This document shows, in pieces, positions 18,825 to 52,605 of a stretch of 64,000 nucleotides of DNA. Every line of letters begins with the position of its first letter. The stretch's first letter is position 1. The notes below the pieces were generated by a model, which saw nothing but the letters and a program-made list of their open reading frames with translations, did no database searches and had not been told where the DNA came from. Position numbers and translations under genes: made by a program. Origin of the DNA: Candidatus Gastranaerophilales bacterium (lineage in GTDB: Bacteria; Cyanobacteriota; Vampirovibrionia; Gastranaerophilales; Gastranaerophilaceae); NCBI GenBank assembly GCA_944325545.1, contig CALVAM010000011.1:2023-66022 (forward strand). The letters run 5' to 3'.

Positions 18825-19721
18825 GTGAAAATTTTATCTGTTAATTCTGTTGGTTATAGAAATAATAATTATCATCTAAAATTTAATAAAAATAACAAAA
18901 GTAATTTTTTACAATTAACTAATGAGCCTATCTCAACAGTAAATTTTAAAGGGATAAATACTTTATCTCAAAGTTTTGAATATGGTTTATCTTTGGAAGA
19001 ATTGAAAGACAGATTAAGTCCTGAAAAATATACAAAATGAGATTTATTATTTCCCAAAAGTATTGAATATAAAAGTTTAGCTGATGGGGATAAAAAAGCT
19101 TTAGCTCATTTAGTAAGAGCTTCTGAATATTTTAATGACGTTTATAAACGTTTAGATGATGTTCATAATTTAGAGTTTGAAAAATTTTTAGCAACAAGAA
19201 TTGCTCAAGGTGATGAAAAAGCTGTTTTGACTAAAAAACTTTATGATGGTCAAAAAGGTATAAATGCAAAATCTGTTGACGGGTCTGAAGTCAATTTAGC
19301 TAAAGGAATTAAAACAATTGCAGGAAAAGGGTTTTATACCCTTCAAAAACAAAAAGAGATTTTAACATCTTGGATAGTTGGATATTTACCTTTAGGAGCG
19401 GATTTAAGTAATGCACATAGAGCGAGAAATATTATGCAGTATAACTATTTTATCCAAAATGGCGGAATAAAATTTGATAGCAATGGTAAAATAAAAATAG
19501 ATTTTGCTAAAATTACTCAGTGCGGAGAAAAAATGCTTAATGATGCTATAAAGATACAATTAAGCAAAAGTGAAAAAATGGCAAAAGAATATATTGAAAA
19601 ATATGCTGTTTGGACAAAAGAATTGGATATACTTGCAAATAAACTGAAACCTATTGATAAAAGATTGAATTCTTATTTGTATTCTCCAATCGCAAAAGAA
19701 GTTTTGAAAAAAATAAAATAA
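18825..19721 (+). pseudogene. Disrupted paralogue of the M49-like peptidase at 50713-52605
   Basis: The two listed ORFs (18825-19040, 19227-19721) share one frame broken only by TGA at 19038-19040; the read-through aligns to the paralogue (LADGDKKALAHLV vs LADGDKEALKHLV) but skips about residues 176-504, including HExxH. Confidence 0.8.
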
Positions 19722-46498: not shown

Positions 46499-46527
46499 TT
46501 GATAAAAATAAATTAACATTCTATAAT
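46499..46527 (+). promoter_or_regulatory. Sigma-70 promoter of glgA
   Basis: TTGATA-N17-TATAAT. Confidence 0.7.
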
Positions 46528-46576: not shown

Positions 46577-48022
46577 ATGAAGATTTTGTTTGCAGCTGCA
46601 GAAGTTTCTCCGTTTTCTAAAGCAGGTGGATTATCTGATGTTGTAGGAAGTTTGCCTAAAGCTTTGGAAAAAGATGCTGAAATTGCGATTTTTACTCCTC
46701 TTCACGGATGTATTGATTATAAAAAATGGGGTTTAAAAGAATTAGAAAATTCAGAAATGTGGATTACCTTCGGAAGTTCTCCGCAAAAATTTAAGCTTCA
46801 TATGACAAAACTTCCTAATACAAATATTAATGTATTTTTTGTCCAAAATGATTGGTATTTTTCTTGTTTTCAGGAAGTCTATCCGCGTTGGCTTGATCCA
46901 AGATATGAACATGAAAGATATATTGCTTTTTCCCTTGCAACTTTAGAATATGCTAAACAATTAAATTTTAGAGCGGATATTATTCATTCTAATGATTGGC
47001 ATACTGCGATGATTCCTCTTTATATAAAAGCAAATTATAAGTTTGATGAATTTTGGTCTAAAACTAAAAATGTTTTTGAAATCCATAATCTTGCTTATCA
47101 AGGGGTTTGGTTTGAAGATATTTTAGATTTTGCAAATATGAGAAAAGATATCGTATTTAATGAATGGGGTTGTGAACATTATGGAAAAGTTAATTGGATG
47201 AAAGGGGCTATTAATTATTCCGATAAAATCGTTGCAGTATCTCCAAATTATGCTAAAGAAATTCTTACAGGAGAATATGGTGAAGGTATGGATTATACCT
47301 TAAGAGGGAAAACTGATAGACTTATGGGTATTGTTAACGGTATCGATTATGATGTGTTTAATCCAAAAACAGATAAAACTCTGACTAAAAATTATGATGT
47401 TAACTCTTTAAAAAATAAAGAAGAAAATAAAAAGAAAATTCTTGAATATTTTGGACTAAAATATAATCCAGAAAGGCCTTTAATTGCTTTGATTTCAAGA
47501 CTTGTAGAACAAAAAGGTTTGGATTTAATTAGGCAAGTAGAAAATGATTTAAAGAATTTGGAAGCTGATTTTATTTTCTTAGGTTCCGGAGATAAGGCTT
47601 ATGAAAATTTATTTATTTGGCTTTCTAATAATTCTTCAAATATCAGAACTTATGTTGGTTATAGAGGTGATTTAGCTAATCAAATTTATGCAGGAAGTGA
47701 CTTTTTTCTAATGCCTTCTCGCTTTGAGCCTTGCGGATTATCTCAACTTATTGCAATGAGATTCGGCTCTTTACCAATTGTTAGAGCAACTGGCGGACTG
47801 GAAGATACTGTTACAGGATATCCATTAAACAATTCTAACGGGTTTAAATTCTGGAGATATGACGGTTGGGATATGAAAGAGGCTATTCTTACCGCTATGA
47901 ATGTTTATAAGGATAAGTATACTTTTAATGCGATGAGAAAATCTGCTATGGAAGCCGATTTTAGTTGGAAAGAGAGTGCTAAAAAGTATTTGGAAATGTA
48001 TAAATCTCTTATGCTAAAATAA
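46577..48022 (+). CDS. glgA: Glycogen synthase
   Basis: KAGGLSDV, HSNDWHT, HNLAYQG, SRLVEQKG, PSRFEPCGLSQL, TGGL.DTV, DFSW. Confidence 0.97.
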   Translation: MKILFAAAEVSPFSKAGGLSDVVGSLPKALEKDAEIAIFTPLHGCIDYKKWGLKELENSEMWITFGSSPQKFKLHMTKLPNTNINVFFVQNDWYFSCFQEVYPRWLDPRYEHERYIAFSLATLEYAKQLNFRADIIHSNDWHTAMIPLYIKANYKFDEFWSKTKNVFEIHNLAYQGVWFEDILDFANMRKDIVFNEWGCEHYGKVNWMKGAINYSDKIVAVSPNYAKEILTGEYGEGMDYTLRGKTDRLMGIVNGIDYDVFNPKTDKTLTKNYDVNSLKNKEENKKKILEYFGLKYNPERPLIALISRLVEQKGLDLIRQVENDLKNLEADFIFLGSGDKAYENLFIWLSNNSSNIRTYVGYRGDLANQIYAGSDFFLMPSRFEPCGLSQLIAMRFGSLPIVRATGGLEDTVTGYPLNNSNGFKFWRYDGWDMKEAILTAMNVYKDKYTFNAMRKSAMEADFSWKESAKKYLEMYKSLMLK

Positions 48023-48026
48023 TTGT

Positions 48027-48515
48027 ATGAAGAAAAAGATTGCAATTGTTTATTCCAAATATACTCCGACAATTGATGCTATTATTTATAATTTGAAAAA
48101 TGTCGAGATTTGTTGTTTTCAAAATGAAATTACAACTAACGACGATGTCGATTTGATTGTAGGAGTTGGAGTTGAAAAATATGAAGATAAAAATATTTTA
48201 ACTTCTCATTATTCACTTTTACCTTCTTTCCCTGATGAAGAGCCTGTAAAAAAAGCTGTTTTGGAAGGAGTTAAAGTTACAGGGATTACTTTTTATTATA
48301 CAAATCCTAAAAAAATTATTGCACAATACCCGATAATTATTTCTAATGGTGCTGATTTTCTTGAAATTGAAAATGAATTAAAATATATAGAACAAACTTT
48401 TTTCCCGATAATTATCGAAAAAGTTTTAAATAATGAAATCATTGACATGAAAAAGATTGGGAAGTCTTCTACTTGCTCTAGCTGTGGTGGAGGGTGTTCA
48501 AGTTGCAAAAACTAA
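48027..48515 (+). CDS. Degenerate PurN-like (formyltransferase fold) protein with Cys-rich tail
   Basis: HYSLLPSFP, GVKVTGIT, IIAQ recognisable; catalytic Asn and Asp loop absent; C-terminal CSSCGGGCSSC. Confidence 0.7.
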   Translation: MKKKIAIVYSKYTPTIDAIIYNLKNVEICCFQNEITTNDDVDLIVGVGVEKYEDKNILTSHYSLLPSFPDEEPVKKAVLEGVKVTGITFYYTNPKKIIAQYPIIISNGADFLEIENELKYIEQTFFPIIIEKVLNNEIIDMKKIGKSSTCSSCGGGCSSCKN

Positions 48516-49285
48516 ATGTCTTAATTGCAGGAGATGGTGTTTCTGCGGATTTGATTAAAGCTTCTAAATATCTTAATAAGTTATATATTACTTCTGACAT
48601 AAAAATTGATGGGTGTATAAATATTAAATTTAATACTTTTGTAGAACTTGCTAAAAAATGCAAAGCTTTGAAAATAGATGTAGTTTTTGTAGAAAATGAA
48701 AAATGGATTTTACAGGGAATTTCTGATGTTTTAAGAAATAATTTTATAAATTGTATAGCCTTAAATTCAAATTGGGCAAATGTTTTAATTGATTTTGGAA
48801 AATCAAAAAATTTATTACATAAATATAAAATACTTACTCCAAAAAATTTAGCATATCCAAATGAATTTCCTGTAATTGTTAAATCTAATAGATACGTTAA
48901 TATTGCTAATTCTGTAAGCGAAGTTATTAAATATAGAAATAAATTGGCATCTGTATCAGAAGAAATTGCAAGGGCTTCTTTTTTAGAAGAATTTGTGGAA
49001 GGGAATTATTGTAAAATTACATCTGTCTTTGATGGTAAAAATCTTGTTTCTATACCTGTTCAAGGGCTTTCAATTGAAAAATTATTAGAGTATAATCAAA
49101 ATTTACAAGAAATGTTAATCACAGAAAATGCTAATTTTATAGGTTTTTTTAATTCAAAAATTATTTATAATGATGAAATTGTAAACATTGGTTTTGATTT
49201 TGAATGGCAAAATTTTGATTATGATATATTATATTTGGCAACTTCAACAATATATCAAAAATTAAACGAAATTCAATTTATTTAA
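48503..49285 (+). CDS. Degenerate, truncated PurD-like (ATP-grasp) protein
   Basis: Similarity to the PurD N/B domains (IDVVFV..E, FPVIVK, FLEEFVEG, FDGK); lacks GGREHA, GPE and GLAAGKGV; TTG at 48503 fits the GGAGG spacing better than GTG at 48494. Confidence 0.65.
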   Translation: MQKLNVLIAGDGVSADLIKASKYLNKLYITSDIKIDGCINIKFNTFVELAKKCKALKIDVVFVENEKWILQGISDVLRNNFINCIALNSNWANVLIDFGKSKNLLHKYKILTPKNLAYPNEFPVIVKSNRYVNIANSVSEVIKYRNKLASVSEEIARASFLEEFVEGNYCKITSVFDGKNLVSIPVQGLSIEKLLEYNQNLQEMLITENANFIGFFNSKIIYNDEIVNIGFDFEWQNFDYDILYLATSTIYQKLNEIQFI

Positions 49286-49287
49286 GT

Positions 49288-50622
49288 TTAAATATCCTTA
49301 TCATCAAAAAGTTTGTTGAAAAAGTTTTTAATTTTTTGTCTTAAACTTCTTTTGGGTTTTATTTCTTCCGTTTGTTTAGGTTGAACATTTTGAGCGTTGT
49401 ATTTGTTATTAAATTTTTTTCCCCATTTACTGGTTTTTCTTTTTATTTTTTGATTTCTTTTTGAGTCTTCCAGAGCTTTCTTTTTTTCTGCAAAAATTCT
49501 ATCTTTTTTAGAAACTTTATTAGTTTTTATTTTTATTGGAACTTCTTCTTTTTTTGTAAAATCAAACCAATTAAAATTAGATTTTTGGTTTAAATCTATT
49601 TTAGCTACATTATCTAAATTCAAAGTATGGTTTTCACTTGTATTTAGAAACGCTTTTTTATCTATATTTAAGTTTTTTCTTGTCTTTAGATTAAAAAATA
49701 AAGCTACTATGTTTTGTTTTATTTTATGAACAAATTTGTTAGTTTTTTTCTCACTCGTATCTTGAATATTAATATCTTTAATTTTAGTTTTTTTAGAATT
49801 ATAAGTATAATCTTTTAAATAACTTTCAGGAGCTTTATCTAAATTCAAAGTATTGTTTTCACTTGTATTTAAAAACGCTTTTTTATCAACATTTAAACTT
49901 TTTCTTGTTCTTAAGTTGAATAAAAGAATTTCAATATTAAGCTTTAACTTATCTAAAAAGTTTAATTTTTCATTAGTTTCTATAGCAGCTTCTTTTATTG
50001 GCGAATCTTTTTTAGTCGTTTCTTTTTTTGTAATTTTTTCTGTTTTTTTAGAAATTTGTTCTATATATCCTCTTTCTTCTTTAGAATTAAAAGGAATTAA
50101 TTTATAATTAAAAGTTTGAATATTGTCTTGTTTGTTTGTAGAAAATATTATATTATTAGTTGTTTTTGTATTGTTTTTTGGAACTGTTTCATTTGAAGTT
50201 GTTTTGAAATTTTCGTTTTTGTAAAAACCTTGAGTTTCTGTTTTTCTTTTATTAGTTTTTTTTAAATTTTCAGCAGCTTCTTTTGTTTTATCTTGGAGTT
50301 TTTTATTAATTTCTTCAAGTTTAGTTTTTAATTCTTGTTGATTTTTTTCTGAAAGATTTAGTTTTTCAAGAGCTTTTTTTAAACTTTCATTTAATCCTTT
50401 ATTTTTGTGAATAGCAACTCCGGCAACAGTTGCAGAACCTAAAAAACCTAAAGTAAGTAATATATCTTTAGTGTTAAAACTTGATTTTTTTGTTGGAATT
50501 GTTTTTATAAAATCATCATTTATAAAAGATTCATTTTGACTAAGAGTAGGATTTTCAATCTTTTCTTCTGACTTAAAGTTTATAAATTTATTAGGAATAT
50601 TAAAATTATTAGAAATTTTCAT
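49288..50622 (-). CDS. Lys/Asn-rich hypothetical protein with one TM segment and an internal repeat
   Basis: LLTLGFLGSATVAGVAI; about 80-nt near-duplicates at 49610 and 49835 (225-nt spacing). Confidence 0.7.
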   Translation of the reverse strand: MKISNNFNIPNKFINFKSEEKIENPTLSQNESFINDDFIKTIPTKKSSFNTKDILLTLGFLGSATVAGVAIHKNKGLNESLKKALEKLNLSEKNQQELKTKLEEINKKLQDKTKEAAENLKKTNKRKTETQGFYKNENFKTTSNETVPKNNTKTTNNIIFSTNKQDNIQTFNYKLIPFNSKEERGYIEQISKKTEKITKKETTKKDSPIKEAAIETNEKLNFLDKLKLNIEILLFNLRTRKSLNVDKKAFLNTSENNTLNLDKAPESYLKDYTYNSKKTKIKDINIQDTSEKKTNKFVHKIKQNIVALFFNLKTRKNLNIDKKAFLNTSENHTLNLDNVAKIDLNQKSNFNWFDFTKKEEVPIKIKTNKVSKKDRIFAEKKKALEDSKRNQKIKRKTSKWGKKFNNKYNAQNVQPKQTEEIKPKRSLRQKIKNFFNKLFDDKDI

Positions 50623-50712: not shown

Positions 50713-52605
50713 TTATTCATTTAAAAGCTTATCTGCTAAAGGTGATTCGACTTTTCCATTTAGAGTTTTGGATACTTTTTTAATGTTTTCTGACATTGTT
50801 TGCATTTCAGGAGTCCATACAAAATTATCCATCACATATTTTTCCCCTTTAGAAAAATCTCCTTTCATTTGTACTTGGATAATTTCTTCAAGCATTTTCT
50901 TTGCAGTTGGTATCATTTTTTCTATATTAACGTTTAAGATACCGTCTTTAGAAATTTCCATTGCACCTTCTTTTATAAAATAGTAATTTTGCATAACTGA
51001 ACGAACTCTATGAGCTTGGCTTAGAGTTGGTTTAGAAGTCATCATATTATCTGCTGCATATGTTACTATTATTTGATTTCTTTGCTCAGGTGTATACATT
51101 CCTGCCTCTGTTAATACATCAAGCATTGCAAGAGAAACCATATCAGCTTTATTTTCTTCAATAATTGATTTATATTTACCCAAACCTTCTGTACCTGATT
51201 TTGGTCCAAGAGAATGTCCGTTTTCATGTCCTACTGTGAACCAGTGATCTGCTTCGTCGTTATAATATTTATGTAGTTCAGGGTTTAGAGTTGCATCTAA
51301 ACGTTTCTTCATTTTTTCTCTAGCATCATCCGATGTAATTAATCTTATTTGTCTATGATAAACGTTTCTTCTTCCGCCATCTAATTCTATTATTGATAAT
51401 TTATCATCATTAGGTAAATTTTCTGCAAGAGTTATCCCTGCTCTAAATTCTCCAACATCACCGTTTACTGCAACTAAATCTACATCAACCATTGTTTGTT
51501 TAGATTCTTTATCCGGTGAAATGTTTTGGATATAACTATCTTTGAAAGGCATATTTTGTGCCATTAGCGGTAAATAATTTTTAACGCCTAAAATAGCTTC
51601 TGTACCTTTTTTATTAACTATTCCGACACGACCGCCTAAAAAGTCTTTAGCAACAGGAGTGATTCCATTTTCATCAAGTAATTTTTTTAATTCAGGATTT
51701 TCAACTACAGTTTCTGTTAATTCATCTGAATAATTTTCTCTTGTTATTGTAAATTCTAACGGAGTATCTTGTAGGGTTGCCCATTTTTTATCCGCATAAG
51801 CATCTAACATTGGGTCTGCTGTTCTTAAAGCTTTTGCCTGCAGTTTTAAGAATTCGTTAAAATCTTCATTTGTTGATGTTTCTGCGGCCTTTTCAAGTTC
51901 TGATGACATATAAGCAAAATCATCTTTAAATTTATCTACATAATCTGTAGCTACAAGTTCATTTCCAACTCTTTCTACAACAGAGCGTTGATTTAGAATT
52001 TTAGCAACTTCATCTACTTTACCTTCTTTTAACATTTTAATTAATATATTGTGAAATTCTTCTTTTTCTAAGTCTTGAGGATAAACACCTTTTCCGGGTC
52101 TTTCTTTGACACCTTTAGCCAGTTCTATCATATTGCTTTCTCTATCAAGTGAACAAACTCCTTTTTGAGCATCAAAAAGAATCTTTGTTAATTTTGCTTG
52201 CTCGTTACCTTTTGCAATTTCTTTTTCCAAATATTCTTGAAAAGGTAAGTTATTAGGGTTATCAAGCTGCATATTAACTTTATCCAAAACCTTTGCAGCC
52301 TTTACTAAATGTTTTAAAGCTTCTTTATCTCCATCTGCTAATTCTAAATATTCAGGTGCGTCAACTGCTAGCATTTTTTTTGTTGTTAGATAGTCTTTGT
52401 GAGTTCTTTTTTCTAACTCTTCCATAGAAAGATTTAATTCGTAATCTTTTTTATTAATATTTACATTATTAATCATACTCATTCTATTAAGCTCCTCTAC
52501 TAATTTTTGTGAATCATCTTTTTTTATATTTTTATTATCATCTTTGGAAATATAATTTTTCCCAAAAAGATTAATATTATTTTTATTTAAACGATTTATT
52601 TCCAT
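50713..52605 (-). CDS. Peptidase M49-like (dipeptidyl peptidase III-like) zinc metallopeptidase with a low-complexity N-terminus
   Basis: GHENGHSLG (HExxH), downstream IEENKAD third-ligand motif, AENLPND, GKGVYP. Confidence 0.85.
   Translation of the reverse strand: MEINRLNKNNINLFGKNYISKDDNKNIKKDDSQKLVEELNRMSMINNVNINKKDYELNLSMEELEKRTHKDYLTTKKMLAVDAPEYLELADGDKEALKHLVKAAKVLDKVNMQLDNPNNLPFQEYLEKEIAKGNEQAKLTKILFDAQKGVCSLDRESNMIELAKGVKERPGKGVYPQDLEKEEFHNILIKMLKEGKVDEVAKILNQRSVVERVGNELVATDYVDKFKDDFAYMSSELEKAAETSTNEDFNEFLKLQAKALRTADPMLDAYADKKWATLQDTPLEFTITRENYSDELTETVVENPELKKLLDENGITPVAKDFLGGRVGIVNKKGTEAILGVKNYLPLMAQNMPFKDSYIQNISPDKESKQTMVDVDLVAVNGDVGEFRAGITLAENLPNDDKLSIIELDGGRRNVYHRQIRLITSDDAREKMKKRLDATLNPELHKYYNDEADHWFTVGHENGHSLGPKSGTEGLGKYKSIIEENKADMVSLAMLDVLTEAGMYTPEQRNQIIVTYAADNMMTSKPTLSQAHRVRSVMQNYYFIKEGAMEISKDGILNVNIEKMIPTAKKMLEEIIQVQMKGDFSKGEKYVMDNFVWTPEMQTMSENIKKVSKTLNGKVESPLADKLLNE

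Follow-up and report, generated by a model that had tools for sequence, protein, structure and literature searches.

Motif-eroded relatives of PurN and PurD downstream of glgA in a Gastranaerophilales bacterium, probably retained as pseudoenzymes

Locus layout and descent of ORF A and ORF B

The window analysed here is a stretch of 64,000 nucleotides (nt) from a Gastranaerophilales metagenome-assembled genome of 1.82 Mb that is 99.6% complete and contains approximately 29% G+C. Directly downstream of the glycogen synthase gene glgA lie two open reading frames (ORFs), hereafter ORF A and ORF B, which descend from the purine biosynthesis genes purN and purD, respectively. Both have lost the catalytic equipment of their ancestors, both are under purifying selection and each is retained independently of the other; they are probably relic pseudoenzymes. 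An earlier note, made from the letters of this stretch alone, had described A and B as uninterrupted, overlapping ORFs on the + strand, and this was borne out by our analysis. The locus has the following features.

46499..46527, + strand: sigma-70-like promoter match TTGATA-17-TATAAT upstream of glgA, agreeing at 11/12 consensus positions
46577..48022, + strand: glgA, encoding an ADP-glucose-type glycogen synthase (TIGR02095, 507 bits)
48027..48515, + strand: ORF A, PurN-derived, 162 amino acids (aa), starting 4 nt after the glgA stop
48474..48512, + strand: Cys-rich C-terminal tail of A (CSSCGGGCSSCKN), with the spacing C-x2-C-x3-C-x2-C
48489..48493, + strand: GGAGG, a Shine-Dalgarno-like sequence for B, within Gly codons of the A tail
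48503..49285, + strand: ORF B, PurD-derived, 260 aa from a TTG start, comprising the N domain and the ATP-grasp A core

The end of A reads TGT GGT GGA GGG TGT TCA AGT TGC AAA AAC TAA. Translation of B most likely starts at the TTG at 48503 rather than at an alternative GTG at 48494 (giving 263 aa), since GGAGG lies 9 nt ahead of this TTG and the resulting length of 260 aa is that of the database cluster representative. The promoter match upstream of glgA is the best in the region by consensus only, where the total number of such matches does not exceed that in shuffled sequence; it probably drives glgA, A and B as a single transcript in the source genome.

The ancestry of both proteins was recovered at the level of their families. 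As single sequences they score below the curated thresholds, with A reaching 26.6 bits on PF00551 and 33.3 bits on TIGR00639 (equivalog cut-off 150.1), and B reaching 22 bits on GARS_N and 22.6 bits on TIGR00877 (cut-off 288). Family profiles matched PurN (PDB 3p9x) with an E value of 1.4e-15 for A and PurD (PDB 3lp8) with an E value of 1e-16 for B. The AlphaFold2 (AF2) model of A, with a predicted local distance difference test (pLDDT) score of 83.5, returned PurN structures as the top Foldseek matches (template modelling (TM) score 0.67-0.72); the model of B (pLDDT 92.7) returned PurD as its top match (TMq 0.82). Homologues of matching length number more than 100 for each protein, with identity down to approximately 40%. 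A record of the Joint Genome Institute (JGI) names one A homologue PurN, and matches in the ESM Atlas were limited to Melainabacteria clusters labelled 'hypothetical protein' or formyl-transferase.

Motif losses in A and B were judged by alignment with motif-intact relatives. The phosphate loop of A has changed from SGNGSN to SKYTPT, Asn106 has been replaced by Thr at a position that varies across the A family, and the Asp144 loop is shortened; the earlier note had read the loss of the SGxGSN loop, the catalytic Asn and the D144 loop from the letters, and the alignment confirmed each of the three. Beyond these, His137 is replaced by Tyr and the N-terminal subdomain has a deletion of approximately 35 residues. 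Of the catalytic residues Asn106, His108 and Asp144 of PurN, A retains only His108, whose survival the note had not mentioned and which, together with SLLP, is invariant in the A family. The C-terminal subdomain is retained, with H-x-SLLP, GVKVTGxT and IIAQYP. A therefore shares with PurN (TIGR00639, PF00551; PDB 3p9x and E. coli 1cde) a common descent, the fold, His108, the SLLP loop and this subdomain; it differs in its length (162 aa against approximately 200-212 aa), in lacking the phosphate loop, Asn106, His137 and the Asp144 loop, in carrying a tail of four cysteines (Cys4 tail) and in residing in a genome without the purine pathway.

In the alignment of A homologues, C157 of this tail is invariant and C150, C153 and C160 are nearly so. 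Among 68 representative clusters of A relatives, 65 carry at least three of the tail cysteines and 63 have lost the phosphate loop, from which it follows that the tail and the C-terminal subdomain are what selection keeps in A. The tail is also carried by the motif-intact PurN of two relatives with separate purN and purD genes (loci L078 and L080) and is absent from fused PurN-PurD proteins (described below). The earlier note was thus right that the tail exists, and its proposal that the tail was gained alongside the erosion did not hold, as motif-intact PurN already has it.

The erosion of B is more extensive than had been supposed. GSGAREHA has become AGDGVSAD and GPE has become ENE, the GLxxGKG loop is missing, the ATP-grasp A domain is truncated and the C domain is wholly absent. 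These agree with the earlier description of a PurD-like protein without GGREHA, GPE, the glycine loop and most of the C domain. The DFKKL...NTGGMG loop and the EYNVRxGDPE Mg motif (R[LF]GDPE, PS00184) are lost in addition. The ATP-grasp Lys and the EE positions are kept in most members of the B family, and approximately 49 positions of B are conserved at the protein level. In comparison with PurD (TIGR00877; PDB 3lp8 and 1gso; approximately 425 aa), the 260-aa B protein has in common the N domain and the central ATP-grasp sheet, and is without the C domain and the GGREHA, GPE, GLxxGKG, NTGGMG and R[LF]GDPE motifs. Given the loss of substrate loops and catalytic residues from both proteins, neither should be able to make glycinamide ribonucleotide (GAR) or to formylate it.

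Purine synthesis and a graded series of relatives

Profile searches of the source genome found no purM, purC or purE. The only purF-like match was an amidotransferase (GATase) domain inside a 631-aa frame, and there is no true purF. The genome does carry hpt, which allows purine salvage. PurH is matched only by a 298-aa frame at C14:11755-12600 (-) that covers model positions 211-507 and scores 94 bits against a cut-off of 528; this further truncated relative of a purine-pathway enzyme might serve the recycling of 5-aminoimidazole-4-carboxamide ribonucleotide (AICAR).

A canonical purN or purD elsewhere in the genome, for which the earlier note had advised a search, was not found: no PurN scored above the cut-off and the sole other PurD-like gene is itself motif-eroded. 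Three formyltransferase-like genes of approximately 315 aa were considered as purN and rejected, being Fmt (279 bits) and two Fmt-like proteins; the latter, of 314-319 aa, score below the fmt cut-off and are located at C1:65673-66233 (L001:1108-2067, -) and C25:20135-20512 (L002:1327-2271, +). The other PurD-derived gene encodes 413 aa at C3:15597-16838 (L005:1492-2733), scores 188 bits against the cut-off of 288 and adjoins a class II fructose-bisphosphate aldolase gene; it lacks GGREHA, GPE, the glycine-rich loop and GDPE, and was therefore rejected as a true purD. Weak matches to the B profile, of approximately 400-450 aa, were also seen in the purM-less genera g16, g12, g5 and g2. That A and B themselves are divergent and still working PurN and PurD enzymes is ruled out by their motif losses together with the missing pathway.

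We then surveyed 201 Gastranaerophilaceae genomes, of which 58 contain purM. In some other genera of the family, purN and purD are fused into a single gene of 582-690 aa that directly follows purM (L071:1561-3309, L072:1473-3245, L073:2095-4017 (-) and L079:1211-3274). The 582-aa protein of L071 comprises Formyl_trans_N, GARS_N, GARS_A and GARS_C, and the SGNGSN, NxHPSLLP, VDSG, GSGAREH, GPE, GLxxGKG and GDPE motifs are intact in the fused proteins. In L078 and L080, purN (196-206 aa) and purD (368-421 aa) are split and overlapping, again after purM, with intact PurN catalytic motifs. Being of full length, with intact motifs, adjacent to purM and in purM-containing genomes, the fused and split forms are presumably active. 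They have the same purN-then-purD order and the QYP/LYP signatures in common with A and B, and the split forms also share the overlap and the Cys tail; they differ from A and B in their length, their intact motifs and their position next to purM.

The distribution of these forms follows that of the pathway. All 14 fused frames were found in purM-containing genomes, and the eroded or truncated short forms (genera g1, g6, g8, g11 and g14) were all found in genomes without purM. Motif erosion was read directly only in the representative loci L074-L077 and in the source genome. Loci L074-L077 represent a partly eroded stage, with A of 202 aa and B of 370 aa, A of 216 aa and B of 250 aa, or a lone B of 285 or 373 aa. 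The resulting series runs through 421, 370, 285, 260 and 250 aa for B, and through approximately 205, 160 and 104-134 aa to none for A. A similar range is found within the genus of the source genome, which contains long forms (A of approximately 205 aa and B of 397-409 aa), the standard forms (160 and 260 aa), species with a mini-A (104-134 aa) and species without A. The mini-A keeps only the region from H-x-SLLP through the Cys tail, and its entire N-terminal subdomain is gone. By sequence comparison, the A-B pair of the source genome is placed at the reduced end of this purN-purD series.

A literature search returned no account of a Cys-tailed PurN, of the erosion series or of the A and B proteins, and one narrow search found no description of a bacterial PurN-PurD fusion. 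As a separate observation, genera g7, g13 and g5 encode a PurM of approximately 305 aa (194-214 bits, below the 236-bit cut-off) and a PurD of 368-391 aa with a partly deleted N domain, both with their catalytic motifs kept; these may represent the onset of the same erosion, or simply a working pathway that evolves fast.

Selection, co-occurrence and gene neighbourhood

Comparison with relatives, which the earlier note had suggested as a check, revealed purifying selection on both genes. Against the two closest species, the ratio of non-synonymous to synonymous substitution rates (dN/dS) was 0.11-0.21 for A and 0.16-0.23 for B, and 0.016-0.033 for glgA, the gene for a 630-aa peptidase and that for an HD protein. 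Across 14 species pairs spread over the B tree, lineages with B only included, dN/dS was 0.10-0.24 for A and 0.06-0.24 for B, with 0.012-0.054 for neighbouring genes (0.012-0.020 for glgA). Upper bootstrap limits did not exceed 0.47 where substitutions sufficed, and two A pairs of low divergence gave 0.71-0.74. All 57 of the B ORFs fetched from relatives are open, at 42-92% identity and with dS up to >1; in a neutral simulation the probability of B remaining open after 10% substitutions was 0.003. Stops that a genome search had flagged in B proved to be the natural terminal stops. Thus, A and B are not pseudogenes, a possibility ruled out by dN/dS and ORF integrity; the low dN/dS and open ORFs, together with their faster drift, indicate that they are functional, under much looser constraint than the neighbouring genes.

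A and B do not form an obligate pair. Within the source genus, B is present in 94 of 98 genomes (65/68 of those of high quality); A is found in 54 of the 98, in every case immediately 5' of B. B occurs without A in 22 of the 57 fetched loci, where no remnant of A was found; in the five genomes with B-only loci that were tested, A was not found anywhere. B conserves the same positions, Cys53 and Cys84 among them, whether or not it is accompanied by A, and no B positions of note are conserved only where A is present, as would be expected of an A-binding surface. Conversely, Cys-tailed A-like genes are found in 83 of the 201 family genomes, and at least seven other genera have such genes without B. 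Genera with an A-like gene, no B-like gene and no purM include g19, g26, g2, g12, g9 and g3, and both A and B are gone from many purM-less genera. In purM-less genera the A-like forms of approximately 200 aa keep His108, His137, Asp144 and in most cases Asn106, with a degenerate phosphate loop; with the triad kept and the phosphate loop degenerate, they might still use formyl-tetrahydrofolate (formyl-THF). Strict co-occurrence, as an obligate two-subunit complex would entail, was therefore not observed, and the earlier suggestion that A and B are jointly retained as a complex was not supported.

A link to glycogen synthase, also proposed earlier, is weak. At the source locus glgA does lie 4 nt upstream of A, and in four B-only loci the gap between glgA and B is 3-9 nt; only 11 of the 57 loci have glgA immediately ahead of A or B. 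In the loci of relatives glgA is 89-99% identical. The gene for the 630-aa peptidase is found downstream, in convergent orientation, in 20 of the 57. The only constant association in the genus is that of A with B, with glgA and the peptidase gene as the other recurrent neighbours. Gene order in other genera is oadA-oadB-[purM]-A-[B]-glgC, realised as purM-A-B-glgC in L080, oadB-A-B in L076 and L077, and oadB-A-glgC in L081, L083, L088 and L089. An inherited order oadA-oadB-purM-purN-purD-glgC (L080, L076, L077, L081) is therefore the best explanation for the nearness of glycogen genes, which recur as glgC in other genera and as glgA in the source genus. Fast evolution and variable neighbours had raised the possibility of a defence or mobile cassette, which was rejected, as there was no PADLOC match and the genes descend vertically from a pur operon.

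Several neighbouring genes were noted in passing. In the four purM-less genera represented by L081:3791-5725, L083, L088 and L089, a Cys-tailed PurN-like gene of approximately 200 aa lies between oadA/oadB and glgC, without purD, and two conserved genes without a Pfam match (approximately 195 and 215 aa) follow glgC. Immediately downstream of B in the window, a Lys/Asn-rich protein of 444 aa with internal repeats and no family match is encoded convergently at 49288-50622 (-). It is fast-evolving, at 79-90% identity where its neighbours are 99% identical and 33-43% in more distant species. Its stop and that of B are 2 nt apart, which leaves no room for a terminator. The 630-aa peptidase, an HExxH (HENGH) protein encoded at 50713-52605 (-), has no Pfam or NCBIfam match, is 82-99% identical across the genus and has a dN/dS of 0.02-0.05; at about 18930-19607 there is a weak paralogue of part of it, with 33% identity over 236 aa.

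Interpretation and significance

A and B combine descent from enzymes and loss of catalytic residues with purifying selection and intact ORFs across species, two features expected of pseudoenzymes. With moderate confidence, we interpret them as relic pseudoenzymes of a family-specific purN-purD pair, kept for separate non-catalytic roles. The repurposing put forward in the earlier note is upheld in so far as catalysis has been lost under purifying selection, and is not supported as a joint complex. The starting point would have been a purM-purN-purD operon in which PurN and PurD were fused or encoded by overlapping genes, with a Cys tail on PurN. The source genus would then have lost de novo purine synthesis and come to live on salvage, with A and B still translated and folded and each kept for its own sake. 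B would be the constant core across the genus, and A an optional accessory shrinking to the C-terminal subdomain and the Cys4 tail. B may use its N domain, now its most conserved part, together with the residual ATP-grasp core to bind either a protein partner or an adenine nucleotide, with the N-domain face carrying the FNTFxELAxKCKxLxIDxVxVE stretch as the candidate binding face. A may bind a metal through the Cys4 tail.

Several observations weigh against this interpretation. A and B evolve 3-10 times faster than their neighbours, and within the genus B is only 42-60% identical, against 82-99% for glgA and the 630-aa peptidase. On a quickly built B tree, A has been lost at least 4-6 times, and one A copy (G518) contains two in-frame TAG codons; these repeated losses and in-frame stops indicate that selection on A is weak. 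Many of the conserved residues of B are ancestral fold determinants, with no clear mark of a new site, and the Cys tail is disordered or of low confidence in the AF2 model of A. The ligand, metal and partner of the two proteins are conjectural, and very slow decay is another possible reading of the entire series.

Under such slow decay, A and B would be functionless remnants of the pathway that have not been deleted, their apparent constraint reflecting translational coupling, operon structure or the cost of misfolded fragments. The graded shrinkage of both proteins is consistent with this, as are the rapid evolution, the repeated loss of A, the disappearance of both genes from many purM-less genera and the G518 copy. 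However, dN/dS stays at 0.06-0.24 in 14 independent pairs, B-only lineages included, all 57 B ORFs are open where neutrality gives P = 0.003 after 10% substitutions, approximately 49 positions of B and the four tail cysteines of A are conserved, and B persists in 94 of 98 genomes of the genus. We consider slow decay improbable.

Acquisition of new chemistry is likewise an unlikely explanation. A might act as a 10-formyl-THF hydrolase (PurU- or FDH-like) or formylate another amine, and B might be a ligase using what remains of its cleft. In the A-like forms of approximately 200 aa, which keep His108, His137, Asp144 and in most cases Asn106, a changed substrate or hydrolysis is plausible; His108 and SLLP are invariant in the A family of the source genome itself, and most B proteins have the ATP-grasp Lys and EE positions. 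Yet that same A family has lost the Asp144 loop and varies at the Asn106 position, the mini-A lacks the N-terminal subdomain that forms half of the folate cleft, and B is without the glycine-rich ATP loop, both Mg ligands of EYNxRxGDPE and the C domain.

The proposal of the earlier note, a non-catalytic A-B complex working with glycogen synthase (for instance by sensing nucleotides or folate and so controlling glycogen synthesis), is highly improbable: A and B do overlap wherever both exist, with the ribosome-binding site of B inside A, their ancestors are fused in some genera, glgA lies 4 nt upstream in the source locus and 3-9 nt upstream of B in four B-only loci, and A-like genes directly precede glgC in four other genera, but each gene is widely kept without the other, conservation drops at none of the B positions where A is missing, glgA adjoins only 11 of 57 loci and the glgC adjacency stems from inherited gene order.

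A bolder extension of the pseudoenzyme interpretation, to which we attach little confidence, would make the Cys4-tailed C-terminal half of PurN an unrecognised small metal or redox module, a second job of the active enzyme that has outlived catalysis. B, built from the N domain and ATP-grasp core of PurD, would then be a new regulator that binds an adenylate or a partner and possibly tunes glycogen synthesis (GlgA/GlgC), and the two together would form a stepwise record, inside one family, of two enzymes becoming binding proteins.

Relics of purine enzymes have been met elsewhere. Haloarcula and Halorubrum encode 'extra' PurD-like proteins with no Mg-binding motif and a divergent P-loop, and Brown et al. 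(2011, PMC3261824) concluded that these are not genuine GAR synthetases. Those proteins are paralogues beside a working PurD in purine-synthesising hosts, whereas B is the truncated descendant of the operon copy in a genome from which the pathway has gone. Among viruses, the cellular homologue of the herpesvirus vGAT proteins is FGARAT/PFAS. The vGAT pseudoenzymes, homologues of a glutamine amidotransferase (PMC7605207), resemble the proposed state of A and B in keeping a purine-enzyme fold without catalysis and using it for binding or regulation; they differ in being viral and in having a known cellular partner.

For the family, these results mean that automatic annotation of such genes as 'formyl transferase' or 'PurD family' may credit gut bacteria with a purine synthesis that is absent. 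With purM in only 58 of 201 genomes, purine auxotrophy is widespread in the Gastranaerophilaceae. The series also raises the questions of what role the Cys4 tail has on PurN and what the PurD N domain does on its own. Fused, split, motif-eroded, truncated and lost states of the same enzyme pair can all be found within a single family, with selection measurable at the reduced end, which offers a rare natural series for the change from enzyme to pseudoenzyme and for which part of a fold is worth keeping.

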